A stretch of 63,896 nt of DNA, counting the filler, from Cladosporium halotolerans (lineage: Eukaryota), in the NCBI RefSeq assembly GCF_011745625.1. It is 9 parts of 9 records of this genome, joined end to end, with 100 filler letters (N's around TTAATTAATTAA, not from the genome) between each part and the next. Parts side by side here need not be neighbours in the genome. Positions count along the whole stretch, not along the records: positions 22,078 to 29,130 come from NW_027191634.1; 8 more parts are not named here. One strand, 5' to 3'. This document shows positions 15,092-60,900 of this stretch, piece after piece (the stretch's first letter is position 1; the number at the start of each line of letters is the position of its first letter). The notes under the pieces were generated by a model that was not told the DNA's origin, made no database searches, and saw only the letters and a program-made list of their open reading frames with translations. The position numbers were made by a program, and so were the translations under genes.

Positions 15092-18000
15092 TTATTCCCC
15101 TCCAATGCCCTCCATCAGCTCTCCCTCCTCAACGCTCCGATCTAATCGTTCGATGTCCCACGATTCGTGTTGGTCGCCCTCCCCGGGCAGTTTCTTGCCC
15201 ACATCTGTCTCTTCAAGGAACTGAAGCACGTCTACGACAGCTTCTGCTCCGAACAGAGTTTGTAGGTCTGTTCTGTCCCGCCTTCCGCTGATCAAAACCT
15301 TCTTGTTATTCAGCCTCCGTAGCATGGCGTCTCGCTGCCTTCGCCATCTTCTGCATTTGAGCAATAGGTGTCCAATGGTTTGCTCGACACCTCCGCACCA
15401 CCAACAGTGTGCGTCGTTGACCTTGCTGATCCTCAGGAGGTAGACGCCTGTGACTGCGTGTCCCGATTTGAGCTGCAGGTATCGTGCTGCGACTGACTTT
15501 TTCGCACCTTCGATGTTTCTGTCTACCTTGAATCTTGCCTTCCACTTCTCTTTGATGGCTTGCCTGGTGTAAGGCAGTGATGCCGATCGCATTTCTTTGG
15601 GCTGGTGTTTTGCTGCTCTTTGCGCCGCAGCGCTCGCGATCTCGTAGCCCTCTACGCTTTTGCCGTTCGCAAGCCATGTTAGGACCACTCGGCCGCCCGC
15701 GTCTTCAACTCGTAGTGCCTGCCGTTTCATGCCTGTGATGATCGGTAGCGCCCAATGTTCAGCGCTCTCTATGACGGCCAGTCCCTGTCGCGACTCCGTC
15801 ACGACCTCAGCGCAACAGCGATTCGCTCGATGGAGAAGCGTGAGGAGGCCCTTCACAACCATGCCGATGGCAAACAGTGCAGCATCAGCCGTTGTCATGT
15901 ACTTGCCCAATGATGATGCCTTCGTCTTCCACTCGCGTCGCTCTCTCCATGCGGTTCCTACCCCATAGCTGACATCCTTGGTCGCACTCACAAAGATTGT
16001 CAGTTGTCGTGGGTGGTCAGGTAGCATCCTCTCCGGTACATCTGAGTATCCGTGATTTCGAATCACTGGGACTGACACAGGCGAAGTGACTTTGCAGGGC
16101 AGTTCGAATCCGTATTCAGTGTCGTATCTGACGTTCCTGACGATCTGCTGTGCAAGTCGGCCTCCGAGCGATCGATGCATCTTCTCTGATTTCGTCCAGC
16201 CGATGCTGGATGGCTGGCCTGTCGCTCCTTCATGTCGATGAAGCTCGCCAAATCGGAAGTTTGCAGGCAGGAGCTGATGCGTTGGGTGGTCTCCATCCGC
16301 GCTCAGAGCGCGCAACGCGTATCTGGTCTGCCGAGAGTCGAGAAGTTCCTTGGCGCAAGGCAAGCACGCTTCCCGCTGCAGGAAGGCTACCGGCGTTGAT
16401 TTCAGCAACCCCGTGATGGCTCTTGCTTGACTGTTCATCAGCAATTGGAGCTTCCCCAGTCGGTCCTTCTGGCCCCTCCACCATATTTCGGACCCGTACA
16501 TCGCGACGGAAGTGACTGCTGCGACGACCACTCTCCTCATCAAGCTGACCGACAGGCCACCGTTGCTTCGGCTGAGGCTAGCCACCCGCTGCAGAGCGCC
16601 CTTGGCGCTCGCCATCCTGTTCTCGAAGTGCACCTTGAAGGACAGCTTCGAGTCGAGCCAGAAGCCTAGCCATTTGGTCGCTTCCTGCTTGATTGTAAAG
16701 CTTAAATCTCCGATCTGGATTGACGCATCTTTTGCTGCTTGCAACACCTTGCGACGCCTGCTGAACAAAAGAACTTCGGTCTTGCTGACTTCGAACTCGA
16801 CTTTGTTATCGGTCCCCCATTGGACCGCATCTCTGGCGACGCGCTCCAGATGCCTGGTGCCCTCATTCAAGTCTTCGCATTCTGTCACCAGACCCATGTC
16901 GTCGACAAACGAGATGCATTGCAGTCTTGGGTGTCTTTCTTCTAGCCATTCGAACATTGCACTGACCGACAAGATAAAGAGTACAGGCGAGACCGGTGAT
17001 CCCTGCGGTAGTCCAGCTTGGATCCTGCGGGTCTCGCCTGTTCTTCCGTCGATTACAAGCTTTGCTCGCCGGTCCGACAAGAATGAGTCCACCCAGCGCA
17101 CAATATTACCGGCTATACCGACTCCGATCATCCGCTTGAGCAGCTGTCTTTTGTTGACCCTATCGAAGGCTCCTTTGACATCAAGGAGCAATGCAAGGGC
17201 GATGCGCTTCTTACTCCAGGCGTCTTCGACCTTCGACACCAGTTGCGCCACTGCGTGTGATGTTCCTCTTCCTCTACGGCAGCCGAACTGTCCTCGGTGG
17301 AAGATGCCGTTCTCCTCGCAGAAGGATGCGATCCAAGTTGCGATTGCCCTTTCAACCACTTTGCCAAGACAGCTGAGCAGGCTGATGACTCGGTAGGCCT
17401 TCGCGACGGTGTAGGTAGGTTTTCCCTGCTTGCGCAACAGAATGCCTTTTGCAGTCTTCCACGTGCAGGGGTGGTACCCTATCCTTATGCATCCTTGAAC
17501 GAGGGCCACGATTCGTTCTTCGGCCCACTGCCATAGCAGCCGGAGTGCTTTGAATCCGATGCGGTCCGCTCCCGGGGCTTTCTTGACGGACTGTGAAAAC
17601 AATGCTTCGCGGACTTGATCCGCACTGACACTAATCCTCGTGTCTGGTATCTGGATTCCTTCCTCGTCGCTGGCTTGTGGTGGGAAGGCTTGTGCCATAA
17701 AGATTTCTTCTTTCTCTTCTGCTGTCGCCACCATCTTGTCCGGCTGCCCTTCAGCGCCGCTGGTCTTGATTGCTGGTGTGTATGAGGGCATCTGGGGCTT
17801 CGTGTATCTGAGCGCTTTCCAACATCGTTCAGGATTATTTGCGGTTTTCGAGTGGTCTTCATTTGGGAAGACGCCCTCAAGAAAGCGTTCCCAGGCCAGA
17901 CGCTTGGCTCTCCGGATGTGACGGTAGTAACTGTTTCTCACTTGACGGTACTCGTCAAAACTGATTCGATCATCGTTGTAGGCACGTCTTGCACCTCCAA

Positions 18001-18976
18001 ACAGCCGTCTCTCCTGTTTGATGTCGTCTGTCCACCACCGCTTCGAGCGTGCGCACGGCGGCCTCCCGGGTGCATGTCGGTCCAGCACTGCCTTGAGACT
18101 TTCTTGCATCCAGTACGCTTCTGCCTCGAGTTCTGCAGGTGTCGCCACCCAGGCACTGACCAGCGCCCTTCCTTCACTCAGCTCGTGCCAGTGCTCGCCT
18201 GCCTTCTTCAACGCCTCTTCATCTGCGCACAGACGATCGATGTTCCAGTTCGGCGGAGCGCCCCTTTGCCCGTCCGTAGCGGTCGCATTGAGCGGCGTCC
18301 ACTCGAAGACGATCACTTCATGGTCGGACGTTGTGGCCAGGTCCTCGTCTATTTCCCAAGATGTGAGCGCACCCACCCCTCGCGTGCTCAGGGTCAAATC
18401 GATGACCGACCTGCATGCCTTCCCGCGTCTGGTGGGTTGCTGGTAGTTGTTGTTGACGATGAGGTCGTGCCTTTCTATCAACCGTTCCGTTGCCCCTGCA
18501 TTCTGCCTTCCCACGACCCACGGATCCCACGCGGGACTACGAGCGTTAAAGTCGCCTGCAAGTATCGTCCTGCCCTCGATGAGCGGTCGCCAGTCGAGGT
18601 GGTCGATCGTGTAGCCCCCACCTTCGACCCTGGCTTTGTTGTAGACGTTGATCAGTCTCGTTCGGCGCGTCTTTCTGCGGTTCGTTGTCTCCCAGATGTC
18701 AAGACACTGCACGTGCGGGCTATTCACCAGGTCTGTCCTCTCTTCGAACACGTATCGATCCAGCGCATCGTTGCGGATTGCCAACGCCACTCTCACGTCT
18801 CGCTTCGCACATTCCGGGTACCTGAGTTGGAACCCAGGGTGGCTGATCGCGTGCCTCTTCCCCACGTGCGGCTCTTGCAAGCACGCCACTTCGGCTCCTC
18901 GCTCAATGGCAGCCTCGAGTGCTGCCGTCGTCGAAACCACCGTGCCGTTGCAATTATGTTGAAGCACTATCATCAT
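15092..18976 (-). CDS. LINE ORF2: APE endonuclease, reverse transcriptase, degenerate RNase H, CCHC
   Basis: LQHNC, LQEP, GDFNA, IDLT, SDHE (APE). YRVISLL, LDVKGAFD, LPQGSPVSP, FVDD (RT). CWWC...HLLLKC. Confidence 0.96.
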   Translation of the reverse strand: MMIVLQHNCNGTVVSTTAALEAAIERGAEVACLQEPHVGKRHAISHPGFQLRYPECAKRDVRVALAIRNDALDRYVFEERTDLVNSPHVQCLDIWETTNRRKTRRTRLINVYNKARVEGGGYTIDHLDWRPLIEGRTILAGDFNARSPAWDPWVVGRQNAGATERLIERHDLIVNNNYQQPTRRGKACRSVIDLTLSTRGVGALTSWEIDEDLATTSDHEVIVFEWTPLNATATDGQRGAPPNWNIDRLCADEEALKKAGEHWHELSEGRALVSAWVATPAELEAEAYWMQESLKAVLDRHAPGRPPCARSKRWWTDDIKQERRLFGGARRAYNDDRISFDEYRQVRNSYYRHIRRAKRLAWERFLEGVFPNEDHSKTANNPERCWKALRYTKPQMPSYTPAIKTSGAEGQPDKMVATAEEKEEIFMAQAFPPQASDEEGIQIPDTRISVSADQVREALFSQSVKKAPGADRIGFKALRLLWQWAEERIVALVQGCIRIGYHPCTWKTAKGILLRKQGKPTYTVAKAYRVISLLSCLGKVVERAIATWIASFCEENGIFHRGQFGCRRGRGTSHAVAQLVSKVEDAWSKKRIALALLLDVKGAFDRVNKRQLLKRMIGVGIAGNIVRWVDSFLSDRRAKLVIDGRTGETRRIQAGLPQGSPVSPVLFILSVSAMFEWLEERHPRLQCISFVDDMGLVTECEDLNEGTRHLERVARDAVQWGTDNKVEFEVSKTEVLLFSRRRKVLQAAKDASIQIGDLSFTIKQEATKWLGFWLDSKLSFKVHFENRMASAKGALQRVASLSRSNGGLSVSLMRRVVVAAVTSVAMYGSEIWWRGQKDRLGKLQLLMNSQARAITGLLKSTPVAFLQREACLPCAKELLDSRQTRYALRALSADGDHPTHQLLPANFRFGELHRHEGATGQPSSIGWTKSEKMHRSLGGRLAQQIVRNVRYDTEYGFELPCKVTSPVSVPVIRNHGYSDVPERMLPDHPRQLTIFVSATKDVSYGVGTAWRERREWKTKASSLGKYMTTADAALFAIGMVVKGLLTLLHRANRCCAEVVTESRQGLAVIESAEHWALPIITGMKRQALRVEDAGGRVVLTWLANGKSVEGYEIASAAAQRAAKHQPKEMRSASLPYTRQAIKEKWKARFKVDRNIEGAKKSVAARYLQLKSGHAVTGVYLLRISKVNDAHCWWCGGVEQTIGHLLLKCRRWRRQRDAMLRRLNNKKVLISGRRDRTDLQTLFGAEAVVDVLQFLEETDVGKKLPGEGDQHESWDIERLDRSVEEGELMEGIGGE

Positions 18977-20756
18977 CGATGGACATGTAGGTCTCGTCGT
19001 CGGGGCTAGGGAATTTCTGCGTTGCTCCCAGGGATGACTTTGTCATCGACCGGAGTTCTCTCGTTGGACGGGGCAATCTTTGACCTCGGGCCCGAGGCTG
19101 GTGTATGCTGGTATCCGAAGATATCGTTTTCATTTGTACCAAGTCGGCTTGGCCTTGGTCAATCGGTGTTGTTTCCACCTCCATTTCTGCTTCGTCTTCC
19201 TGTGCTGTGAGCTCGTCCCGTTCTTGCTCCGGCTCCATCATCGGAGGGCTGCTATGTATCTCAGTTGGCTTTGGCGCACGAGTCCGCCGGTGCGACCTCT
19301 TTTCTGGGCATTTTCGCGACGTCGCCATGTGAGAGCCGCCGCAGTTTGCGCACTTCGCCATGTGGTGTTCGCACGGCTCTGACTTCCTGCCACAGCTTTC
19401 AACGGAGCAGTGGTGTTGACTTCCTGCGTGTTCGCCTGCACAGACAAAGCATCTGGCCTCCCCTGTGCACTTGCCGAAGTGGTCGCTGCCACAGCAGCGC
19501 ATGCACATCCGACCTTCTCCCCTTTCCCAGAATCTCGCTACTTCATGGCGCCTGCCGCCAAAAGAAAGGCCCTTGGCAAGGATAACGTCCGCAGCCTGCT
19601 TGCTTTTCACGGTCATGACCAGTGTCGACCGCTTGATGCTCCCGTTGTCGAACCGCTCTTCTAAGGAGTCTGCCTTGATCCATCGCGGCGTATGCGGCAG
19701 CCGTTCGCCCGTCATCAGCTCGATCTCTTCCTGCGCTAGTTCAAGGCCACCTTCGGTCATGTAGCGATCAAGTGCGACACCATGCACACGCAGTTTGCGC
19801 CACTTCTCTGTCTTTTCCACGAGGACGACTTCAGGGTCTAGCTTCTTGACCGCAGCCATCAAGACCGTCGCGTAGTTAAGCAGCTCGTCGGCACATGCGT
19901 TTTGACTCACCACGCCCGTCAAATTGCCTTTTTCTGTGTATCTCATTTTGATCAATCTCACAGTCACATGGGCTCTTGCGTTTGCTAAGGCCTTGTTCAC
20001 TTCGAACATGATGTCTCTGGGGTCGCAGCTGTGCGACTGCACATTTCTCGCGAAGAGGATACGCCTTTGGTCGAGCGGGTGTTTCTTCGGTTTTCTCTTA
20101 CCGTTTGCGACTGTGGTCCAGCCGCTTCCTTTGCTTGCCCCCGTGATGCTCGCCCAGCTTGGCTGTGCTGCTTGCCCTGGTGGTAATACTTGGCTGCCTA
20201 TACCTTGCGTCGCATGTTCTGGCCGAGCATCAGTCCTGGCAGATGGCACCGTCCTCTCGTTGTTCTGCTTCGGCCCCTTCTCGAGCATCTCCATAATCCT
20301 TTGAAGCGCGTCTTCTACCCGCCGATCCGCCTCGGCTTGCATGTTAGCCATCGCAGTGTTCACGAGCTGAGTAACCTGCATCTGTATCTTGCTCATCTCC
20401 AACCTTATCTCGCCTCGAAGGTATTGCATTTCTCCCAGTGAGCCGGCAGCAAGCGTCGGCTCTGCGAACCCACGCATGCGGCCGTTCGCCACAAACTTTT
20501 CGAATGCTTGTGTAAGCACATCATCACTGATGCTGATAGCTGATCCTCCGTCTGCTTTTCGCTTCTTTGGACTTGCGGATGCCGTGGTGCGAGCTTGCTG
20601 GTCGTCCCAACTCTGTGTTCCGCCAGGTTGGAGGCCCAAATCGCAAAATTCAAGGTCGGCGAGGCTCGTGATTCGCTCGGAGGCTTCCCCGCATGCTTCA
20701 GACCCTGAAACGTCACTTGGAGGCGCCCCCCCGCCGCCTTCACTGGGGAATAGCAT
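18954..20756 (-). CDS. LINE ORF1 (gag-like, three zinc knuckles)
   Basis: CMRCCGSDHFGKC, CFVCAGEH...HHC, CANCGGSHMATSRKC. Overlaps the ORF2 start by 23 nt. First ATG at 20756. Confidence 0.9.
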   Translation of the reverse strand: MLFPSEGGGGAPPSDVSGSEACGEASERITSLADLEFCDLGLQPGGTQSWDDQQARTTASASPKKRKADGGSAISISDDVLTQAFEKFVANGRMRGFAEPTLAAGSLGEMQYLRGEIRLEMSKIQMQVTQLVNTAMANMQAEADRRVEDALQRIMEMLEKGPKQNNERTVPSARTDARPEHATQGIGSQVLPPGQAAQPSWASITGASKGSGWTTVANGKRKPKKHPLDQRRILFARNVQSHSCDPRDIMFEVNKALANARAHVTVRLIKMRYTEKGNLTGVVSQNACADELLNYATVLMAAVKKLDPEVVLVEKTEKWRKLRVHGVALDRYMTEGGLELAQEEIELMTGERLPHTPRWIKADSLEERFDNGSIKRSTLVMTVKSKQAADVILAKGLSFGGRRHEVARFWERGEGRMCMRCCGSDHFGKCTGEARCFVCAGEHAGSQHHCSVESCGRKSEPCEHHMAKCANCGGSHMATSRKCPEKRSHRRTRAPKPTEIHSSPPMMEPEQERDELTAQEDEAEMEVETTPIDQGQADLVQMKTISSDTSIHQPRARGQRLPRPTRELRSMTKSSLGATQKFPSPDDETYMSIDDDSAST

Positions 20757-22077: not shown

Positions 22078-22078
22078 A

Positions 22079-23272
22079 GACACTCGAACGGACTGGCATA
22101 GGTTCTTAGATGACCTCTGTTCTCTATGCGACTCGCAGTGTGGTGGCAAAAGCGTCGTGTCTATCGGTGTGGAGCAACGCTCGGATCACAACATCTTCTG
22201 GATATCTACCACACCGCAGTATCAGCAAGATGCGAAGATTCACCTGGTCGAGTTGCTCGCACTTCTCACAGAATTCCCGTTGGAGGGTGCAAACAGACAT
22301 TTCACTGTTGCCGAGATCACCCGTCGGTCCATACGACGAAGCAAAAAGCGTGTACACAACTACGCACGAAGACTCCGACAGCTAGTCAACACACAGCTAT
22401 CTGGTGAGGAGAAGTTTCATTGTTCAGGTTGTAGGTCAACACGGCACGAATGTCTGTTGTAAAGTCGCCAAGCTGATTAGGTTCCAGACATCGATCTTCT
22501 CACAAGGCTTGAAGATCTTGTTCGCAAAGCTTATTGTCATCATCAGCTTTGCGATGCCGCATACGATTTTCGGCATACACCACAGTACCAGGACTTAAAA
22601 GATCAACATCGCAGATGCTCGAGCGATACATGGAATTTGGTACGACATTTCATTGGACGCCTAGGCTATTGGCGCAAATGTGCCAGATCGGTTGTGAACA
22701 GTGCGTGTGTATTTTCCAGCGTCCTCAAAACAGCCCAGGTTCAATCAATCGACTTACCAGCGCAGAGCCGACATGACAACTTGACTCTGGACGAAGATCT
22801 GGAGAGTTTAGTGCTTAGGGTCTTTCCAAACCTTAGGGGAAATCTGATGTGTTATCGGCTTACGGAAAAGATCCAGGGGTCCAAGAGCCTCATCGATTGG
22901 TTTCGCTCGGTCGATATCGTTCCAAAGCCACACGCTGAAGTTGTCGTTCTAGAATGGTTTTGGCGTCAAGATTTTTGTTTCATCAACGACGATCGATACA
23001 TTGCATGCAGCAAGCCTTCTTGTCATTGTTGTGCACTTTTCTTCAAATATCATCCAGGGCATATACTTCCACGGCGGAGTCACGGCAATATCTGGGTGCA
23101 GTGGTGCGTCCCACGATGGGAGAACTCAGGGACATCTGAAAGTTGCAATCTGGGGATTTTGAGGCGTATAACAGACGCGACGAGAATGATGACGCAGGCA
23201 TCGTTCAGCAGTGACAGTGTGCGACGCGAGATGTTTGAATCAACAATCGGCATCACGACGGCGAGGCTGTAA
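22079..23272 (+). CDS. OTT_1508-like nucleic acid/nucleotide deaminase (5' end cut by contig start)
   Basis: RFLDDLCSLCDSQCGGKSVVSIG, then an intron at 22404-22487 (gtgagg...gctgat...ttccag) gives a continuous frame to VRHFIGRLG, HAE, YIACSKPSCHCC, HGNIWVQW. Confidence 0.82.
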
Positions 23273-24766
23273 GATGGCCGCTTACCATCGTACTAAAGGA
23301 GTGAGGCATGACCCGCTGAGCGCGCTACTCCCTTCGCATGAGTAATACAAAGAACTGATGGGCATGAGAACGAACAAGGCCATCGTTTCTGTGACATCGT
23401 GCTGACAAGTCGGAAGATGATCATGAAGGAGTTGAACAGATAACTGGTGAGATATGCTTACGTACATGTGGTCGCGCACTTGGCTTGAGATAGGCGTAGT
23501 GGCGACTCAGGACACCTACCACGCATGCTACTAGACAGAAGAGATGCACAAGTAGTTAGGAGAAATGCAAGCTCGTCCATCGGAGATCTTGGAGATTCTG
23601 TGAGGACTTCTTCTTCGTCGCCGCATTTGAAGCGCTGCGCTAAATCGACACGCGGTGTTTTAGCGTGGGTTCTGATATTGAGGCGACGACCCTGTCTCCA
23701 CATACACTGCATCATGCATCCTAGACTGACTTCTGTGTATACCCAATCTGCCCAGATCCGCAGAAGTGCGACAGTAACTTTTGGAATAGCGGAGGCCGGA
23801 TAGATTCACGCCTGTTGGTATTGCTCTGACGATCTACTAGCTGTTTGGTGTTGCTGAGACCACGAGGATGCTTTGAGATATATAAAGGTCTCCTCAAGTC
23901 ATACTTTCGAATATATATCCCTCATCTTCCTTGAACAATACCCGCCAACCATCCGAAAAGCAGTCGAAAACACGCCGAGTGACAGCAACAAGACCACAAC
24001 GCCCATGTCAGGCAGTGCAGCATCCCGTATCCAGTCCGCAAACGTAGGTCAGAGACTCCGTCGTTGACAACCACGAAACTGACGTCTTCAGTCTGGATCA
24101 GGGGGGAACTCTGGTTTCGCCTCACGTGCTCAGTCTGCTGCTGCAAACAATGCCAATTCGGGTCGCGTGAGCCAGACCGGGAGCGCCAGTGGACCCAAGG
24201 GCAACAACGGCGGCAACGGCAGAAAGGAATATATGAAGGCTGCAATTTCGCAGTCGCCCGAATCTTGGTCGCCTCATTTGATACTTTTTGAGCATTTGGT
24301 GTTGGACCACCTCGTCGCTCGTCCGATCGTCTATCATTAGTCTGAGACGCAACAATTGCGGCATGAGTCTGTTGTTAAGACTCGAACATGCCATGCGATA
24401 TCAACTCCTATTCGTCTCAACATATCTACAGTGCGCTGGTAGGGCAATGATACTAGAATGGTGTATCGATAGGTGTGATGGGAAGAATATTGCGGGCGTT
24501 TCATAGTGGTAATTGGAAGCATACGAGATCGGACCAACCGCAATGGCAGGTATTCTCGGTAAAGTCGAATAATGAGTGCAGATGTGCATGGGACTCATCC
24601 CTGTGCCACTAAAACATGCCCGTGCTCGATCCGAGATGGCACTCTTGGAGCACTATGCTTCAATTGACACCCATTAATCATATAAACCGATTATCTGTAT
24701 CGGCCATATATCAACTCTCATTTGCAGCAGTGTCTGCCGTCGTGTGCATTCATATCACTATCCAAG

Positions 24767-25253
24767 ATGTCGACAAAGGAGTACAAGCCACGAAACCCCT
24801 GGTCACTTCACTCTTCTCGCCACACAGATGTGCTGCGTTTATTGCAAGACAGCGGCCTCTCTTTCGACTTTGGCGACATCGATGACCCTTTCAGCAGTAC
24901 CCGAAAATACGACACCAACGTCATGGGCCGATTTTCTTGCTAGAACACTCGGTGTCTTTCCAATGAATGGTCGAGCAAAATCGATACCAGTGACTATACG
25001 ATTGTATCCCGATTCGCGATTCAATGTCAGGGTCTACAACCAGCGGTGTCAAGAGTGTGGAAAGTTGAGCCGGCCGCGACTGGACGGCTCTTACGCCGAG
25101 AGAGTTGTGTACTGGCTTCAAAAGTGGTCCAGGATCAGGATCGACGTCGAAGCGCCTTTCTTCTCAGGCGAACGAAATGGACCTCATTTGACTGCATTTT
25201 GCGAGGGCTGTCGGAATGGGCAATGCAAGAGCCAGACAACAAGCATGTCGTAG
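24767..25253 (+). pseudogene. 3CxxC zinc-binding domain protein
   Basis: YDTNVMGRFSC*N..C..NEWSSK / IPVTIRLY...FNVRVYNQRCQEC...SYAERV...GPHLTAFCEGC. TAG at 24941 and a frameshift in the A-run near 24978. Confidence 0.85.
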
Positions 25254-25325
25254 ACTAGTTTCGTTCAACCAATCTATCCAGTTTGTGGAAGGTGGCACGC
25301 CATCATGGTATTCACTATGCCATAA

Positions 25326-26775
25326 TTATTTTCCAGACATAATAAAGTACCATCCGAGTGCCCGTTTGTGCTCAGACATTAGTGAGCTTGCCATGCAAGA
25401 CTGATATCTAGATAAGTAAATCTTAAGCCGGTCCGACGGCATCATAAAGACGTCCTCTATAGCTCTTGACACTGCTTTGCAGATGTGCGTTCCGGGCTGA
25501 GCCAACCATTCGGCGAAGATATCGGCCTCGTAGATTCGTGTGATTTCGTTGACAAAGTACTGACGATGACCGCCGACAAAGGACACGCCAATGTCTAGTC
25601 GAACGCCAACCTCTCAACGATTCGTATTTTGTCGACCAGTCTGACCTGTTACGTAAAGCGTTGAAGACATACATAGCAAACTCTGCGAGCTCCTCCAGGT
25701 CGTTGTTGTTGAAAACGCGAGGTCCGTCCCGCAAGATCGAATCGAGGCGTAACACTGTCACTAATAGTTCTTTGTCAGGGAGTTTGAGCATGTGTTCCAT
25801 CTCCATGACAACCCCTCTACGTTGGCGCAGCGCTGAGACATCGCTTCTCGTTGTTATGAAGACTCGGTATTCGCCTTCTGATCTCGAAACGGGCACGAAG
25901 TCTTGATGGAAGCATCGGCCAGCGCTTTGATATGCTTGCCGTTTACTCATTCTGCGCTTACGAGACTGGCATGGTGGATGTTAGGAGAGATCGGTTGCAG
26001 TCAGATGGACTATGACGTGTTCACTGCCGCAACTATGCGTTCTTTCTAGAACACTATTGGCATAAAGATGACAGCCAGATGTGCTGTCGCAAGTGACGGG
26101 TCGAAAAGACCATCGACCAGGAGCACATTTCGCAATCTGGTCCGACACTCGTATGTCGCCGTTTTTTTGCTGCGAACATTCGAGTTCTTCTGCAGAAGAA
26201 AACATGCGCACATCGCCTGGCCGCTTGTTCACCACGTGTGCGCATGTTTCTTGCACATTGCGATCCTTGGGATCATATCGATGCCATGCCAACAGAAGCA
26301 GGGTGCTCGAACCCAGCAGAGGGCGGTCGTGTCGAAACTGCTGCTGCAACCATGTACCCGTCCCCACCTCGAGCTCGATACCTCGGTGGTCCGCTAAGAA
26401 AAAGGCTATGATGATAGATTGGTGAGCGTCGACATGCCCCCGATCCATATGCAAAGAAGATGATGATCCGACGATCGTCTGCAGCTGTTCGGCTTCCCCG
26501 TGCAAGAAATAGCTAGGTACGAGAGTGCTGTTAGCTGCTGAAACACGGCTGCGCCGAAGCATCTGTGTCGGTATCGGTTCCGCTGAAGTACCCTTACAGC
26601 CGATCCAGATAACGGAGTTACAGCGAGTCTGCAGGCTAGGCTGGCAGGCTATGACCTCGAAATCGGTGGAACCGCTGTGGCAGTCGGTCGTTGGTCTCGA
26701 TATGACATTGGTGTACAAGTAAGCTCCTAATTTGAGAGCATAAGACGCCATCAGGTATCCATAAATGGCGGGCAA
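25326..26775 (-). pseudogene. ATP-grasp-fold-like protein, frameshifted
   Basis: Ordered motifs VLERTHSCGSEHV, HQDFVP...GEYRVFI, VRLDIGV...YFVNEITR, split over three frames. Confidence 0.55.
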
Positions 26776-26927
26776 ATTGTCCAGATGTGTCGTGGTAGAG
26801 ACTTCGGCTCAGGAGTTACAATGGTCGCATGGTTCTCTGATGAACTTCAGATGATCTCTATCGATTCCCGTATACCTCAAAGCGATCTTTGAGTCGACGG
26901 CGTGATCCTTTTGCTCCTTGTCGTAGA

Positions 26928-27377
26928 TCACGTGCGATTGTACATGTTCCCGAGCCTGCAGGGTACGTCAGCCGTTTGCCACGTTAGTAGACATAGATCG
27001 TTGAAGCCACCGTGACTTACGGCAACGACGAAAGCAAGCCCATGAGGAATGCACACTGTGACACGCCCATCAGGGGAGAGACGGGTCGGATGTGATCTTT
27101 GATAGATGACTCCCGTCAGACTATCCCTCTTGAACCACGGTTTGTCCAAACGTTTCCATTCATTCTCGCCATCGGGTAAGCTCAGCACTTGCCGCTCCCG
27201 ACTCAGGCCAAAAGATTCTCTGGACTCGCGAAAACGATTGTAAAACGAGGTTCGCAGGTCAGGATCGTGAGAATGGAGGTGTGAGAGAAAGCGTGCGATG
27301 GTCGTGGTATGTAACGTCGCCGAGATCTGCTCAGTATGTAAAGAGGGCGATGAGATTCTTGCATCAAGCTCTGACAT
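26928..27377 (-). CDS. Hypothetical protein (149 aa)
   Basis: ATG-initiated ORF with protein-like composition; no family recognised. Confidence 0.35.
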   Translation of the reverse strand: MSELDARISSPSLHTEQISATLHTTTIARFLSHLHSHDPDLRTSFYNRFRESRESFGLSRERQVLSLPDGENEWKRLDKPWFKRDSLTGVIYQRSHPTRLSPDGRVTVCIPHGLAFVVAVSHGGFNDLCLLTWQTADVPCRLGNMYNRT

Positions 27378-27700
27378 TGGTGGATACTGCGCTGTCAGAT
27401 GGACGGTCTTTTATTAAATACTAAATTGAGGCAGAGGAAACAAGTGAGCGGCCCAGATAGGTCTTGTTTGTTCTGCTTGAGATGATCTGTGCTGGCGGAC
27501 AGCGGGTATGTGTACTACAGCCAGAATGTACGCTATCCTACATGAGAACAGGACTCTCCAATGTTCCTGGTTTCCAGGGCAACTTGCGAGTTCTCCACAC
27601 ATCGCGTGGTTCACGCGCCGTCCGCACATGCCACACGCGCCTAATTATCGACCGCAATCATTTTGCGCACACTTTCTGCTTCGCCATAAAGATTAGCCCA

Positions 27701-27986
27701 ATGGCGCGAACGAAATATATTCACGAACCGAGACCTTCACAACCCGCGAAGCCCAAATCGCCATCGAAAACGGGTAGCTGCGTTACCTAGCTATCTTCGA
27801 TACTCGACGAGCGTTTTTCACGTCGTTGATTCTACTAAATTGACGGAGGCGCGTAACTTGCATCACGTTACAGCATTGTCTCTTGGTGCGAAGAAGACAT
27901 CGACGAGCTCCAGCGCCTTGTATGCAAATGCGCAAGGATGACAAGAGAGGGAGTAAAGACCCGCAATCCAATCACAGCCTCGGCAA
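27701..27986 (+). pseudogene. MARTK-initiated ORF, copy 1 (short/truncated next to a LINE fragment)
   Basis: MARTKYIHEPRPSQPAKPKSPSKTG. Shares the MARTKYI start and Pro-rich tail with the ORF at 28671. Confidence 0.5.
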
Positions 27987-28374
27987 AAGCCGCGGCAGGA
28001 GTGCTCCAGTTCCTCGAAGATACAGAGATAGGCAAGAAAATCCCTGGAGAAGGGGTCCAAGATGATTCGTGGGATCTCGAACGATTAGATCGGGGCTGAA
28101 GAGTGAGAGATGGCGGAGGAGAGCGGGCGTGGATGAGGGGAAAGATGAGGAATGACAAAGACAAGAAAGTAGGAGGGCAAGAAGCCCAAAAGCTGTGGTG
28201 GCTTGGTGGAGTTCGGGACGGCGAGCATAACTGTACTGCAAAAGGTCAACGCGAGAGCACACCAGGATGCCATAGAAGTCGTTGAGAAGATAGCCGACGT
28301 GACATAAGCGATTTAGCTTGAATGCACATGAATAAAAATGTAAAAAAATAAATAAAAAAATAAATAAGAGAAAA
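27987..28374 (+). mobile_element. 5'-truncated LINE family A copy
   Basis: VLQFLEDTEIGKKIPGEG...SWDLERLDR matches the ORF2 C-terminus near 15100-15240. Family A 3' UTR and A-rich tail. Confidence 0.9.
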
Positions 28375-28670
28375 CATCGCCCTCGTGAACGTTTAGGAGG
28401 CCGGCGTTGAGCAGCTGGTGTCCAAGCTGCAGCCAATTCGCCAATTCCTCGGAACCGGCTCAGTATGCAATATACAGCCGGTCCGTGAAGCATGCAAATA
28501 ATTTCGGCAAAACGTCATATTTCGCTTGTTTGCTCGGCTCGACCCTTCACTCCACGTCGCGCTATTCGTCCATTCGAGAAACCCTCACGCGTCGCGCCTC
28601 GAAAGCAAAACCGTCTAGAGAGCAGAGTATCGCGATACCTCTACCCACGAGCTGAGCTCTTCACAATCTA

Positions 28671-29130
28671 ATGGCGCGTACAAAATACATACCGAGGCCG
28701 AAACCTCCGCACTCTACGCGTCCCGTCCGGCCTCAAGCGACACCTAAACCTGCTGCACTCAACTCAGCCATCGAGCTCAGCGCGTCGAATGGACAGAGCG
28801 ATGATCAGACACCTGCACAGCCTGCACTTCCCAAGAGGCATCAAACGGCCACCAATTCTGCAATATGGACCGTTGCGATTGAGCTCGGCGCGTCAAACGG
28901 TCAGGCGATGATAAAAAAGTCCGGAGGGGAATGGGAATTGGTCAGGTGGGCGCAAGGCGTGAGCGCAAGCAGTATAGGAGGGGCCGAGGCCATACCTGCT
29001 TTGACTGCGATGAGGAAGAGGAACGAGACTCTAGAAATACTTCATGGTCACGCGGCGGTGCGTGCCCGAAAGCGCAACCCAGGAGATTGGGAGATGTTCG
29101 CCTATCCCAAGATGGCTTTCGTGGACGAGG
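28671..29130 (+). CDS. MARTK-initiated protein with Hsp70/actin-like ATPase N-terminal motifs (3' end cut by contig end)
   Basis: MARTKYIPRPKPP... then WTVAIELGASNGQAMI...LVRW...EAIPALTA...LHGHAA...FAYPKMAF, paralleling HSPA12-like iaIDFGTT...I..W...KVPT...WG...FKL. Confidence 0.55.
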
Positions 29131-29230
29131 NNNNNNNNNNNNNNNNNNNNNNNNNNNNNNNNNNNNNNNNNNNNTTAATTAATTAANNNNNNNNNNNNNN
29201 NNNNNNNNNNNNNNNNNNNNNNNNNNNNNN
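29131..29230. other. Artificial contig linker
   Basis: N44-TTAATTAATTAA-N44. Confidence 0.97.
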
Positions 29231-36299: not shown

Positions 36300-38967
36300 A
36301 GTTGCGGTCGTTGAGAAATCACGTAGAGAAGAGGACGCGTTGGTGCCGCGTCAAGCGTGCCTGAGGTGTGGACGTGCTTGAGGTGGGGAAAGCTTCTACC
36401 GGCGCTGTTGCCCCCCGCATTTCCTAGGGGTTTGATTGGTCAAGATCTTGAACGCGACGCGGCCGTATCCCACGCGCGCGTATCTTGTCGTGGCCACCCT
36501 TGTGGGACTGGCAAAGGGCGTCTCAGCTCACTGCACCATACATGACAAGCAACATGTCCGACTATAAGACACCGTCGAATGACCCGATCGGTCTCGGTGA
36601 CGACTATCAAAGCGGATCCGAGGAGGTCGACAGCGTTGATCGTAAGCCTCCTGCCACCCCTGATCCATCCAATTCGGTCGAATGCACTGCCGTCGCTGCC
36701 GTCACAAGGCACAAGTCCGGCAAAAAGCGACGTCGACGCACCCGAGCAGATGAGATCTGGTCACATTCACGCAAACATGTACCAGGTCTAGAGCCTGAGC
36801 GGTGTGAAGTGGGTCGTCGGCTGTGGTACTGCAACGTTTGCCCAAACTACAGTGTATCGAGTACAAGTGGCGCGAGAGGACATATGGCCTCTATACATTC
36901 AGTCGTTGTGTCTGACGAGATCATGAGGGGCGTGAAGAAAGCCAAGTATCACGACGTCCGTCAGATGCTCTCCAAGCAGGCGTTAGCACAGCAGGAAGAA
37001 GCTACGCACAGCGACAAACTTGTACTTCAGGCCGCAGCTGATCCAACTCTGGTAAAGGCGGCCTGGATTCGGCTCCTCATACGACACGACCTCCCGCATA
37101 ACTCTGTCTCATGGCCGGAGCTACATACATTTGTGCATACAATCAACCACATGGCCTCTGATATCCTGCCTACCTCGAGTAACACGGTACGGAATTCCAT
37201 CACGGCAACATTCAAACAGAAGCAATGGCTCGTCCGTGACGTTATGCGTGCTGCGAAGTCGCGTATCCATGTCACGACTGACACTTGGCACTCGCCGGCG
37301 TCGACGGAGTTTCAGGCGATTAACGCTCATTTCGTCGACGAACATGGCCGGTTAAGGAAAGCTTTGCTAAATCTCGTTGAGCTCGGAAATGGACACGGTG
37401 GTGAGGCCCGTTGCAGAACACGTCGTCCGTACGCTTGAGTTCTATGGTGTCAAGGACAGGTTAGGATTTTTGACCGGCGACAACCATGGCGCCAATGACA
37501 CGCTTTGCAGAGCCATTGCTAAGGACTTGGGTGACTGGAATCCAGTGGACAATCGGCTCCGTTGCCTTGGACACATCATCAATCTTGCCGTCCAGGCGTT
37601 TCTGTTCGCCAAGAGCGAAGAGGCCATAGCAGAGGCCGAACGACAGTCACAGCGTTGCAGGACTGACATGGACTACGAGATTGCAGCCGGCTCTATCAAG
37701 ATGGACGGGCACGGGTGGTCAACCATCTTGCCTTTACAGAAGCTACACAGCTTGGTCCTGAAGCTGAACAAAAGCGACAGGCTGAAGTCGCAGTTCAAGA
37801 AATTGACGAAAGGCCGCATGATTCACTCGGATAACGAAACTCGCTGGAACAGCTGGTTCTTCACCATTGACAGCGCGTTGCGGCTCCAGTTTGAAGTCGG
37901 ACAATTCATCCACGACAATCACAAAGAGCTTGGCCATCTCGAACTCAATCATTCGGAATGGCAAATACTCCGCGAGACACTCGCGTTCCTTCAGCCATTC
38001 AAAGAGGCAACCAAACGTTGTGAAGGTGACAACACAACGCTGGACCACCTCCACGAAACTATGGACTTCCTTGTGAATCACTTCGATAAACAGATGGTTC
38101 TCCACCGGACGAACAAACCTTTCATCGAGTGCATCATGGTCGGTTGGTATACCTTAGACAGATATTACAACAAGATCGATGAGACTGGCGCATATGCAGC
38201 AGCAATACTTTTGCATCCGAACAAGAGAAAGGCTTACCTTCAGGCTGTGTGGAAGCGTTCTTGGATAAAACCCGGCCTTCGTCGTGCTGAGGATTTGTGG
38301 GTGAGGCAGTACGAGCGTCTCGAAGCCGGTCAAGGCTCCACCACACTTTGTCACCTGAGCAACGATTGCGAATCTACAGAACTTACATCTTACGAGATTT
38401 GGCAACGACAGCAATCGGCGAAGATCGCAGAAAGCAACAACTCAAGCTCGGAGTTCAAGCGTTTTGTTGACGCACCAGCAGAGGCCATCCGCTTCCACGA
38501 TTCATTCACTGTCTTGGACTGGTGGCAAGAGCCGAGCCAGAAGCGTACCTATCCGCGGCTAAGCCTCATGGCTTTAGACGTCCTCTCCGCACCTGCGATG
38601 AGTGCTGAAGCGGAGAGAGTGTTCAGTCGTGCAAGACGACAAATTACCTTCGATCGCGAATGTCTGAAGTCTGATATAATCGGTCAGAAGGAATGCTTGA
38701 AGAGCTGGCACATCCAGCAGCTGGTAGATGAGACAGTGATCGTTCAGGAGTCATACGAGCCCTCTTAAATTATGCTCGAGAGTCTGTAGATGAATGAAGA
38801 TCACGATCAAGCCTTTTTCTTTTTCTGACGTCGTACTACTTCCATCTCGATTCTCGACGCCAAGACTCCTTGTTACACACTACTTAAGATGATTTTCTTA
38901 ATGGACAGAGGTTTCGTTAATGGACAGGTACAGGGTGGACTCTCCTTACTGGACAAGTCCACCATTG
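36300..38967 (+). mobile_element. hAT (Restless-like) DNA transposon lacking its left end
   Basis: Transposase plus a candidate right TIR ...ggacaagtccaccattg at 38967 (reverse complement CAATGGTGGA), with TGGAC subterminal repeats. Confidence 0.85.
36542..38768 (+). CDS. hAT transposase (single +1 frameshift at CCC 37407-37409)
   Basis: BED finger WYCNVC...GHMASIH, TTDTW, TGDN, LRCLGHIINLAVQ (CxxH), NETRWNS, dimerisation region LDWW...YPRLSLMALDVLSAPAMSAEAERVFS. Confidence 0.93.
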
Positions 38968-53505: not shown

Positions 53506-54926
53506 CTAGTCACTCCCACAGTTGCTTTGATCCTCCTGCGGCAAGGTAAGACGACTATCCTGCCCTTCGTCATGACGAACGATATTCACTCCTTTTTTGC
53601 CACCGGACCAGGGTTTCAAGCCCTCTGCCACCAAGGTGACGGCTCCGTCCGCCTCACTAACGCCCTCCACAAATCGATAGGACCCAGAGATATTTCCATG
53701 TGCCTCCTTCGGCAGCTTACAGAATTGTGTACCTCCGTTGGACACGCACTCTCGCTTCTGACACACACGGCCCCTCACGCATTTCACATACCTGCATCCA
53801 CGACCTCCAGGGCAGGGTGTCGACCGAGAGGTATACTCCAGCAGATACTTTGCTTCTTCACTCGCCGATCCATGCTTGAACTTGCATCTCTCATATCGGC
53901 AGCATCCAACGAGGTGAAACTCTTTACAGAGACCCCAGTTCCGATAGATTCCGTTCCAGCGCGCCAACTGAGCTTTGTTTGGCGGAGACAAAGACGGGTC
54001 TAGACGTTGATTCCTGACATCAACGGCGACCATTCCCTTCAGGATATCCTCTTTCTGCAGACGAGCTGAGACACGCCGCTCAGAGAAAACATGGTCGTCC
54101 AAATATCCAACTGTCGCATGTACATGACGATGACATGCAGCCTGCGGTGAAGGGGAGTCGAAGCGCGCATGTCCGGTACGACCGACCACCTGCTGGCCGG
54201 AGAAGAAGATTCCAGCGATGTCCTCCACATCAAATCCAACATCCTTGAAGTGGTGGTGGTATTCCATATGTCTCAATAGTATGATCTTGTCTCTCTGATT
54301 CGCCTGAGATGTCAACATGCTCGTGTATCCCGAGTCGTGGCAGCCAGCGAAGTAGATACGTTGGCAATGCACATTCTCTGCATACATGTCGAACTTTGCC
54401 TTCATCTTGGTATCCGCATTTTCTTTACGATCACCGGCATCGACAAAGTCGAAATTGCAGTTGTTGCGATTGAATCCTGCCACGAATGGGCCAAGAGCGC
54501 GTCTCTCACTACCGCAGCGGCCGGCCTTCGCTACTAATTGAGACAAGCCGGAGACGTTGGCATACACATGCATAACGATGTCGCAATGTCCCATGTCTTG
54601 CTTTCTTAACCTGTCCCTAATCACGCCTTCCAGCTGCGTCGCAGCCGATGCTCCCGCTTGTTCCAGACCATGCCCCTTGTCCATAAGTGCTTGGAAGATG
54701 TATCCGTCTCCGTCGATCAAGACTGCAGTGAAGGCCTTCTCGTTTGCAGTCTGGCCTGCCGCTTGTGTCTGAGGGAGGCATCCCTAGCATCTTCGAGTTC
54801 ACTCTGTAGACGATTTCGATCGGCAAGTTCATTCGAGAGGTCCAACAGACGCTTGAGGGAATCGAGGTCTACTGCGGCGATGACATCCTGTACTGACTTC
54901 AGGTCCAGGGCAGACCCTGGGGGCAT
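53506..54926 (-). CDS. NYN/PIN-like domain plus CCCH zinc-finger protein (frameshift near 54750)
   Basis: Coiled-coil N-terminus, LIDGDGYIF, VYANVSGL, FDFVDAGDRKENADTK, GCHDSGY, then CKEFHLVGCCRYERCKFKH and CPGGRGC..C. Confidence 0.78.
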
Positions 54927-57994: not shown

Positions 57995-60900
57995 TTATCG
58001 TGTCACTCGAACTCGCTCGTTGCTGTCATGTTCAAATCTTTTGGTGGCCAGAGTGAAGTGAATCACAGCTCGCACTGCATCCATGTCCGGTGCCCAGTCG
58101 TCAGTATCCATTGTGGATTTGCCTCCGAGCAAACGAGAGAAATTGTCCTCGTCTGTGTACACGCCCAAGATTTTCCGCTGCTCACTCCACCTAGCACAGT
58201 GAAAGACAAAATGTTCTCTCGACTCAACTGCCTCGCCACACTCGCAAAGGTTCGTTTCCGCCGCCTTGATGTTGTACAAATACCCATTCAATGGGGTCAT
58301 GCCTGTGCGGAGCTGCGCGAGAATGCTCGCCTGTCTCTTGCTGAGGTTGTCATATATGCGTCGAGTGTGACTTCCAGGCCAGGCAGTGTCGATTCTGCGT
58401 ACAGATTCTCCGACAGTTGCTGGAAACTGCTCAGTCGCTCGCCGCAGGCGTTCTTGTGTCCTTTGAACCATACTCCTGGTCAACCTGGGCCGGCCTCTGA
58501 CCACTCCTCCCTCGTCCGTGGATCGCTGCGCCAGCTGCTTTGCCTTCTGGCCCAACTCGAAGATCGGGCTCACCGGGGCCCACGTGAAGACCACGCGGTT
58601 GCGGGATTCCTTCAGACGTGTCACATGTTTTAAAATGCCGCTGATGATCCATTGTCCGGAACTTCGGGTGGCATTCCGCAACGTGACCAGAACGGTGCGG
58701 TTGTTGGTGAACACGTGCGTGACCTGGCCTTGCACGCGCGCCGACAGTGTATTGTCGTACACCGCACTGACGACCAAACCAAGTCCCAGTTCGATCGAAG
58801 CCAGTGCGGCTGTGTAGGCATCGCTTTGCGCATTGGTGCCTACCGTCTTGTCGTACTCGCATCGCTCAGGATTGTTGCGTATCCAGTCAATGCCATCGAT
58901 GGCGCCGCCGATGCCAACCAACCGGTTTCTGGCCGACGCGCTAGTGGCGACACGGATGCCCTGAATGCCTTGGGCGCACCCGGCTGCTTGCTTACCGTCG
59001 TCTACACTGTGGGCTATGTCGAGTCGCGCGTCCCACGGGGCTGAGATGTAGGGCTGGGTCGCCTCCAGCTCATCCATCGGTGCTCCGCATGCGGACTCTG
59101 CGATCTTTTGCAAGGGTGACGTGTACCTCCTGCACGCCCGACGCCTGACCATCTGCGCGAGAGGGTGTGTGCTGGGCATGCTATGCAGGTCGACCCACAT
59201 CCTCAGGGCTTTTCTTGAGTGTCGTTCTCCTATCGTGGGTAAGTTGGCCTCTGCCTCTGCCACCACCGTGCCGACGGTCTGGAAACACCAGACCACTGCC
59301 TGTCCACCGACCCTCTGTACTCGCTTGAGCACCCTCTCTGCGCTGGCCCTCCTAGCGTGCGTCCATACGGACGATGCATAGTCAACCACTGGTGCTACCG
59401 TTGCGTTGAACAGCTTGCGTGTGACTGACGGCGAGAGTCCTCGCAGCCGCTTCAGCGCCATCGCTGCCCGCAGGCCCCTCGTTGCAGCACGCGCGGTGTG
59501 CTCTTGGTAGCGCAGTCGCGAATCCATGATCAGCCCTAAAATCTTGACGCTGCATGTGGGTTGTACCTCCTCCCCTTTGACGCTGATCGGCTCGTCCGCG
59601 GATTGTCGGCTGTTCCGCGTGAAGTGGATGAAGGCAGTCTTGCCCCCTTCGAAAGAGGCCCCACTCCTGCCCTCCCACTCGGTCGCTCGTTGTACGATAG
59701 CATTGAGGCGATCCATGTTCTCTGCGGCGGTTGCGCCCGCGACCCACGCTGTGTAGTCATCGACAAAAGCGATTGCACCACCGTTCTGGTCGATACGTTG
59801 CTGAACGAGATCCGCATTGAAGAAAAGAAACAGGATGGGTGACAAGGGCGAGCCTTGTGGCAGCCCAGCCTGTTCGAGTTCTCTCACCTCGGACGCCTGC
59901 CCATTCACAACAATAGTGGCCGTGCGTCCGGAGCAGAACGCGCTAATCCAGTTCACGAGATCTGACGGGATACCTCTCGCCGCTAGCCGCTGTAGCAATC
60001 TTTCCTTATAGACCCCGTTGTACGCCCCTTTCACATCAAAACTGACTAAGCTCACCACTTTCTTGCTTCTCCACGCCGAGTAGATACGCTCCTGGAGGAG
60101 CAACAGCGCCTGCTCCGCAGACCTCTGCTTCCTCGCGCCGAAGTGGTTGGCTGGCAGCAGCCCGTAAGTTTCTACCGCGAATGATATCCTCTCGGCGACG
60201 ACCGCCTCCAGCAACTTTCCCAGGGTCGATAGCAGTGAGATGGGTCTCCACGCCTTCGCCTGAGTGTAGTCGTCCTTGTTGGGCTTCTTGAGCGGGATGA
60301 TCTTTGCTACCCTCCACTGTCGAGGCAGGGTTCCTGTGTCGAGCGACGCCTGAAAAAGCTGACAGACACTCTCACCCACGGCTGGCCATATTTGCTTCCA
60401 CACTCCCGCGGGAAGGCCATCCTCGCCTGCGGCTTTCCACGGCTTGGTCTTCATTAGACATAATTCGATCTCGTCCACCGTCAGATTCGGCATTGGCACG
60501 GGCTGCCTTTGTGGTCGGTCTCCCTCGTCCTCTATGTTTTCGGGTAGTGGTGGGAAGAAGGTAGCAAGCAGTTGTTCGGCTTGCTCGGAGTTGTTCGTCG
60601 TCATTGACCCGTCCGCCTTTTGTAGCGGTGGGATCTTTGACCACCCCGAGCCATCGTCGGGCTTGAGGTAGCGGGTGGCCTTCCAGATGTTGGTGTCTTC
60701 CCCCAGGAACTCATCCCAGTGCAGTCTTTGCTGCTTGCGTATCGCATCGTGGTACTCCTTCGCTGCCGCTCGCGCTTGTCGCTCTAGCTCCGAGAGTGCT
60801 TCTCCGGCTCGTCTCTGCGCACGCGCCCTGTTTCTCCAGTACGTGTATACGCGGCGGAGCTTCGTGAGGTCCTGCGTCCACCACCGCTTCGCATACGGTG

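Follow-up and report, generated by a model that had tools for sequence, protein, structure and literature searches.

Two open reading frames (ORFs) on one contig of Cladosporium halotolerans begin with a peptide that resembles the start of histone H3. The question raised by this locus is whether the resemblance reflects imitation of the H3 tail and, if so, by what kind of protein. The window, i.e., the whole stretch of DNA that was analysed (63,896 nucleotides), consists of contigs joined end to end by an identical N-linker that is present eight times. Both ORFs are carried by contig G000:C95 (window 22078-29130), which terminates inside ORF2. ORF2 stops at 29130 because the contig ends there and, since the linkers separate contigs, genes past 29230 are not its neighbours. 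The features of this region are the following, in window coordinates.

22481..23272, plus strand: OTT_1508-like deaminase, a neighbour gene (Pfam PF14441, E 3.5e-17)
24828..25253, plus strand: 3CxxC zinc-ribbon gene (PF13695, E 3.3e-11)
25423..27377, minus strand: partner gene, a pseudogene in the window (tblastn 42-62% to an intact homologue)
27701..27790, plus strand: ORF1, a 29-codon stump; family homology stops near 27773 (codon 24)
27775..27983, no strand: filler, 3' of the ORF1 break, common to C70 and C167 only
27984..28373, plus strand: Tad-like LINE, 3' end including its A-rich tail, a dispersed repeat (~30 genome matches)
28671..29130, plus strand: ORF2, the 5' portion (153 codons) of an Hsp70-like gene without a lid, truncated by the contig end
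28671..28685, plus strand: M-A-R-x-K tip of ORF2, resembling H3 1-4 (pN/pS 0.127)
28767..28912, plus strand: internal tandem duplication in ORF2 (AIELxASNGQ present twice)
29131..29230, no strand: artificial N-linker between contigs, one of the eight

Other contigs of the window, which are not neighbours of this one (15095-19042, 57998-62095, 37371-38765 and 53509-54783), carry two LINE ORF2s, a hAT remnant and a DUF7923/CCCH gene.

The initial annotation noted that the ATGs at 27701 and 28671 both encode MARTKYI, with synonymous codons that differ between the ORFs, and this observation is correct. When all six frames are considered, these two starts are the only ARTK-type matches in the window. 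However, they do not stand for two independent MARTK proteins, as was supposed: ORF1 is a dead stump, the 5' remainder of a paralogous member of ORF2's family. Because the ORFs are paralogous, their shared start is inherited, not convergent. ORF1 has its stop at 27788-27790 and is broken after codon 24. A metagenome locus (L066) that is 85% identical to window 26101-27773 goes on as an intact three-exon gene, and its alignment with the window breaks off after that same codon. Similarly, a database protein (P0005) has ORF1's upstream read-through and start in common, but runs on into the ATPase. The same stump is found on contigs C70 and C167. We rejected an assembly artefact as the source of the stump, as the same break occurs on three contigs with SNPs and is spanned by contigs of other runs. 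An intron that would rescue ORF1 was also rejected, given that nothing of the homologous coding sequence is left in the 3' DNA, which consists of filler and the LINE tail. The C70 stump (L021:1521-1779, G000:C70) is tandemly duplicated along with its upstream 100 nt, and its start reads MAQTK.

ORF1 is therefore the stump of a dead cassette, and ORF2 is a member of a live sub-lineage. The genome has 15 matches to ORF2, as well as an additional 3' part on C59. The sister copy on G000:C7 is intact, with three exons encoding about 740 amino acids, and is 92% identical to ORF2. Among 11 own-genome loci that we assessed, three are intact across three exons (C7, C490a and C620), two are cut by contig ends and six are broken or partial. 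A contig of run X17 extends the ORF2 sequence by 2254 nt, reaching the 3' end of a convergent partner gene. The family is multicopy, with copies arising and dying within accessory DNA that is rich in repeats. RIP was rejected, since there is no CpA bias between copies. At one locus (L020, G000:C441:3145-5529), the ORF2 of a LINE is fused in frame with a decayed copy; the junction lies immediately before the phosphate-1 motif, so that LINE sequence takes the place of the tip. Homologue searches with the family returned 48 and 82 proteins. The one named homologue of the Hsp70-like protein (10 proteins looked up) is from Cladosporium, and named homologues of the partner gene are from Hortaea and Cladosporium, so the taxonomic range of the family looks Dothideomycete.

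The ARTK tail was initially described as fused to an Hsp70-like domain. No recent fusion has occurred, as the layout of tail plus ATPase is family-wide. The reported duplication of AIELxASNGQ within ORF2 is real (28767-28805 versus 28875-28912, 82% at the nucleotide level) and is of the internal tandem type; in this sub-lineage, the tail grows from about 33 to 69 amino acids. The first copy of the phosphate-1 strand is degenerate, and it is the second (about 28872-28901) that can be aligned with phosphate 1 of Hsp70. The placement of the ORF2 ATG also holds, with an in-frame stop five codons upstream. Each start that we listed, the window's among them (28659-28670), has a pyrimidine at -3, which is a weak initiation context.

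To establish what protein carries the tip, we used an AlphaFold2 model of a full-length homologue, P0002, which is 65% identical to exon 1 of the sister copy. This model was built from an alignment of 76 rows (pLDDT 70, pTM 0.73); a single-sequence model was unusable (pLDDT 36). Residues 1-23 and 627-752 are disordered. All top Foldseek rows for the model are Hsp70s (E 1.5e-17, 10-14% identity). In VIA comparisons, it aligns with Ssz1 (Z 26.8, rmsd 4.1, 342 aligned) and BiP (Z 26.2, rmsd 6.7, 446 aligned), where the BiP alignment covers model residues 24-591. The model contains the actin-like, two-lobed ATPase fold and, according to the BiP alignment, the beta-sandwich substrate-binding domain (SBD-beta). 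The helical lid is absent from it, residues 627-752 having a pLDDT under 50. In a profile comparison with five Hsp70s of this genome (hhalign, P 95.5%, E 1.6e-8), E34, K110, E199, D220 and TG371-372 are set on the Hsp70 catalytic acid, Lys, Glu, Asp and adenosine-loop positions; we take the first four to be the catalytic positions of Hsp70. K110 is kept in 46 of 46 rows, E199 in 45 of 46 and D220 in 43 of 45. The Thr-Thr of phosphate 1 is replaced by Ala-Ser, and the GGG of phosphate 2 by GHS, so that this motif reads D-C-G-H-S.

These models and profiles show that the family is a highly divergent, hitherto undescribed subfamily of Hsp70 in fungi, with an ATPase domain and an SBD-beta but no lid, flanked by disordered basic tails at both ends. 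The ASKHA/Hsp70 assignment made initially, together with the Foldseek check suggested for it, is thereby borne out, as AlphaFold2, Foldseek, VIA and hhalign all recover the Hsp70 ATPase fold. The HSPA12-like character inferred initially finds no support in hhalign against two HSPA12-like genes of this genome, a weak two-row template, which gives a P of only 6.8% (E 0.005), as opposed to 95.5% for canonical Hsp70s; moreover, the model has an SBD-beta. Presumably, HSPA12-like fungal Hsp70s and this family are alike in being divergent and lid-less, with some motif likeness by eye. The family has the ATPase fold, the SBD-beta and the catalytic positions in common with canonical and atypical Hsp70s (DnaK, Hsc70, BiP, Ssz1 and Hsp110). 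It differs from them in its low identity (10-14%), its phosphate-2 motif, the lack of a lid, its disordered N-terminal tail and its status as a multicopy accessory gene with a fixed partner. The protein has no match in Pfam (including Pfam HSP70), NCBIfam or a PDB sequence search. The C-termini of P0002 and P0091-P0122 have a conserved acidic end (E-S-E-M-E-L/M-like) behind a basic cluster, which we take to be reminiscent of the EEVD tail of cytosolic Hsp70s.

We then considered the tip itself, using the 52 homologues in which the phosphate-1 motif is present and preceded by at least 12 residues. The pattern M-[small]-R-x-K occurs in 35 of these (22 MARTK, 11 MARIK, 1 MVRMK and 1 MARLK). The 17 off-pattern homologues comprise 12 distant ones with other, mostly basic starts (MANIK, MARIN, MARRN, MAKKK, MAKPK and MPTKR) and five close ones that are apparently frameshifted or lack an ATG. 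Thus, the motif that is kept is A-R-x-K and not strict ARTK: position 3 toggles between T, I, L and M, and T and I switch several times on the tree. Conservation in homologues, a check suggested initially, holds in this relaxed form for the 35, but not for the 12 distant proteins, whose starts suggest that a generally basic tip preceded A-R-x-K. The motif is present in homologues at 34% and 46% identity, and is located at the extreme start whether phosphate 1 lies 30 or 69 residues off. All five fully intact DNA copies fit M-[small]-R-x-K, and the departures among DNA loci (MAQTK, MALTK, MVCTK, MASTK and IARTK) are all in broken copies.

Pairwise comparison of 14 related copies, five of which have downstream lesions, gives a pN/pS of 0.127 for codons 2-5, 0.74-0.76 for the adjacent linker and 0.11 for the ATPase core. 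With six divergent, lesion-free copies, the corresponding values are 0.165, 0.74-0.87 and 0.119. The A, R and K of the tip have no amino-acid changes among the 14 copies, and the tip has a pS of 0.34-0.51 with a pN of 0 at A and R. The selection at the protein level that had been suspected from the differing codons is therefore upheld: purifying selection acts on the free N-terminal A-R-x-K with the same strength as on the ATPase core, whereas the linker that follows is free to change in both sequence and length. Unlike this tip, the N-termini of the partner proteins vary freely. It is important to emphasize that the likeness to H3 ends at residue 4, where the H3 of this genome goes on with QTARKS. 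Neither a histone tail past K4 nor a histone fold was found in the family's sequences or the P0002 model, and conservation extends to an aromatic or aliphatic residue at positions 5-6, which H3 lacks.

The initial annotation, though correct that two MARTK starts exist, missed a near-obligate partner gene. Of 19 metagenome loci, 16 have another gene in head-to-head orientation, about 400 nt upstream of the Hsp70-like gene, which in the remaining three begins within 180 nt of the locus edge. The 19 loci correspond to about 14 distinct ones, and the independence of this count is limited because 18 of the 19 come from three related records. In the window, the partner faces ORF1 and has two stops and one frameshift, and its exact start is uncertain; thus both it and the stump are dead. 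On C7, C59 and the run X17 contig, a convergent partner lies downstream of the Hsp70-like gene, a layout that directly repeated cassettes would give. The sub-lineage on C7, C30, C70 and C95 has lost the head-to-head partner, with the LINE tail now upstream, and has kept ARTK.

The partner has no match in Pfam, NCBIfam or a PDB sequence search, and hhalign comparisons to single E. coli GshB and RimK sequences were not significant. These resources thus miss both members of a pair that black-yeast-type fungi have in common and that is subject to fast turnover. By eye, the partner's N-terminus has an H-H/C-C zinc motif, which we take to resemble integrase H2C2. Its invariant residues follow the ATP-grasp order (K/K/Q-E/R/R-x-D/N-E-x-T-R), and its Atlas neighbours are all ATP-grasp-type clusters, at values (0.84-0.86) that fall below 0.9 and thus serve as a lead only. 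These sequence features indicate that the partner is probably an ATP-grasp ligase. A prediction of the complex of partner residues 20-507, Hsp70-like residues 1-440 and two ATP, conducted without alignments, scored 0.00 and is evidence neither way. No relative of either gene was found in IMG/VR, and none of the partner in phages. A viral origin of the cassette was rejected on this basis and because the BFVD matches are ordinary viral Hsp70s at 10-12%.

We found no prior description of this Hsp70-like family or of the pair in the open-access literature. The accessible parts of Chen et al. 2021 (PMC8166343) describe 48 human proteins with H3 N-terminal mimicry (H3TM) and peptide binding in vitro, and state that no K4me3 was found in vivo on the human mimics. 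H3TM proteins have the start iM-Z-R-X-K in common with the Hsp70-like family, whose tip conforms to this sequence rule, including a small residue 1. However, the mimics in those parts are human regulators, together with the C-terminal motif of influenza NS1, and none is an Hsp70 or an accessory-DNA gene. Another comparison is to the hAT-transduplicated H3-like genes of Dothideomycetes, in which, from what is accessible of PMC6710886, an H3-like start was likewise amplified in repeat-rich fungal DNA. However, those genes are captured whole H3 genes inactivated by RIP, whereas here only four residues match and there is no histone fold and no RIP bias. The Hsp70-like gene is not histone-derived, and fits an Hsp70 fold combined with the H3TM sequence rule.

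Our preferred reading, to which we assign a probability of roughly 0.45, is that the two proteins act in the nucleus as an ATPase/ligase module, with the free tip docking into a pocket for the H3 tail. Removal of the initiator Met would expose the tip as an H3(1-4)-type ligand. The Hsp70-like protein may be nuclear, because its C-terminal tail has basic clusters. The tip would dock the ATPase/ligase pair into a pocket that reads the H3 tail, such as a PHD finger or a WD40 of the WDR5/RbAp type. Docking would either bring the ligase to chromatin proteins or titrate readers, and the mobile or accessory block would thereby stay expressed. The Hsp70 might hold a substrate or the partner in an ATP-dependent manner. 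This reading draws on the fold, the pairing, the selection on the tip, its fit to the H3TM rule and the basic C-terminal clusters. It is weakened by the limit of the H3 likeness to four residues, the Ile at position 3 in 11 of the 35 homologues, the other starts of the 12 distant ones, the relatedness of the copies behind the pN/pS values, the tentative ATP-grasp assignment, the pyrimidine at -3 and the lack of K4me3 in vivo on the human mimics. Should the tip prove to be a genuine mimic of H3, it would offer a direct and cheap test of host-chromatin manipulation by accessory or Starship DNA, as well as a new function for a lid-less Hsp70.

The partner's putative activity also permits an interpretation without H3. 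ATP-grasp enzymes couple a carboxylate to an amine, and the tip could be a private tag: the partner ligase would recognize its free amine or Lys4, or use one of them as an acceptor, and the match to H3 would be incidental. In a variant, the tip is a basic import or processing signal. Taken jointly, we regard these as possible but doubtful. The near-obligate linkage of the two genes is what a private tag would predict, the start retained in the distant homologues is basic, of an A-[RK]-x-[KR]-like type, and not ARTK, and the conserved residue at 5-6 is without counterpart in H3. However, according to the accessible parts of PMC8166343, H3K4 readers need precisely A, R and K, and the sub-lineage without a head-to-head partner has kept ARTK (although C7 has the convergent one). 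Even if the tip is no H3 mimic, the pair would be a new Hsp70/ligase module, probably with an undescribed protein modification.

As initially proposed, both ORFs are located in accessory DNA; it is rich in repeats, and the repeat elements and neighbouring genes support this assignment. HET genes adjoin the cassette at four loci, and other neighbours are TPR-NLR, ZNFX1-like helicase, dynamin, OTT_1508 deaminase, 3CxxC zinc-ribbon and OrsD/RecQ-type genes. A relative of the window's deaminase also adjoins the remnant on C691 (tblastn to L024, 47%), and the 3CxxC gene accompanies this cassette lineage (C70, C167 and L070/L071). LINE, hAT, Tc5 and copia elements occur near cassettes. The Tad-like LINE extends upstream into RNase H and CCHC remnants on C7 and C30, and loose poly(A) ends are seen at its tail. 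Metabolic cargo, e.g., copper oxidases and transporters, is equally common near cassettes.

This setting bears on the hypothesis of a selfish toxin-antidote or non-self module, in which the ligase with its zinc motif would modify a host protein (the H3 tail, for example), and the Hsp70, by virtue of its H3-like tip, would serve as the decoy antidote. Many divergent copies of a head-to-head pair, their frequent decay, the HET, TPR-NLR, ZNFX1-like, dynamin and deaminase neighbours, and the death of stump and partner together in the window are all consistent with such a module. However, the metabolic genes are just as common nearby and the pairing by itself fits a simple two-subunit enzyme too, so we consider this hypothesis unlikely. 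That the start is merely neutral ancestral inheritance plus initiation context, with no function in the tip, is very unlikely: the ORFs are paralogous and the genome contains 46 instances of the loose MAR[TI]K pattern, as opposed to 12 of the control, with chance accounting for most of those at the 27 new loci that were read, but the synonymous divergence with no replacement at A and R largely refutes it, and neither the adjacent linker nor the partner N-termini are conserved. Separately, a further non-histone MARTK ORF (L103:2397-3419, minus strand, G000:C68:45253), with an acidic middle, a basic C-terminus and no Pfam match, is found on a large contig.

The setting resembles Starship elements in some respects. 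A 9.8-kb contig with one cassette copy (C59) carries DUF3723 (E 8e-38) and a ferric-reductase (FRE) fragment (FAD_binding_8, E 3.5e-4), although this applies to one of about 12 own contigs. These are two of the four Starship auxiliary genes (DUF3723, FRE, PLP and NLR) given in the accessible parts of PMC9156397 and PMC11162782. Further points of likeness are the HET and TPR-NLR neighbours and a JmjC-like/CXC-like gene. The latter flanks the cassette in 6 of 19 metagenome loci, all of one lineage (Pfam E 0.12 and 1.4), and its best own-genome homologue is separated by 35 kb from the single captain of the genome. Neither a captain nor element ends could be linked to a cassette copy on the cassette contigs, which are short; the sole captain is on C246, which is cassette-free. 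We call the setting no more than Starship-like accessory DNA. JmjC, HSP70 and ATP-grasp annotations are among the matches listed in the supplementary cargo tables of PMC11162782; the accessible main texts of this paper and PMC9156397 contain no mention of them.

A more elaborate hypothesis, which is distinctly doubtful as a whole, is a histone-mimic module carried by giant fungal mobile elements. In this module, a lid-less Hsp70 with an H3(1-4)-like tip would dock on or decoy H3K4 readers, together with an ATP-grasp ligase (and a JmjC-like enzyme in one lineage), and the ligase would write a peptide mark on chromatin proteins, aiding the element's escape from silencing. If true, this would be virus-style histone mimicry within a eukaryote's own selfish DNA.

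Several minor observations concern other loci. The region G000:C246:130000-167000, with the genome's only DUF3435 captain and DUF3723 at 158-160 kb, is a probable Starship. The JmjC-like and CXC-like protein (L060:5924-7150; also L057, L067-L069, L072 and L075) has six own-genome matches, the best of which (G000:C246:165695-166858) is at the far end of this captain-bearing region, along with DUF3723, FRE-like and patatin-like genes. Eleven further small contigs have DUF3723 without a captain. A chromodomain-like stretch, recognized by eye and without a Pfam match, lies 4 kb from a truncated cassette copy (L059:5799-7154). Finally, a ZNFX1-like helicase with CCCH and RZ fingers (L028:3918-9868) adjoins a HET gene and the C490a cassette.
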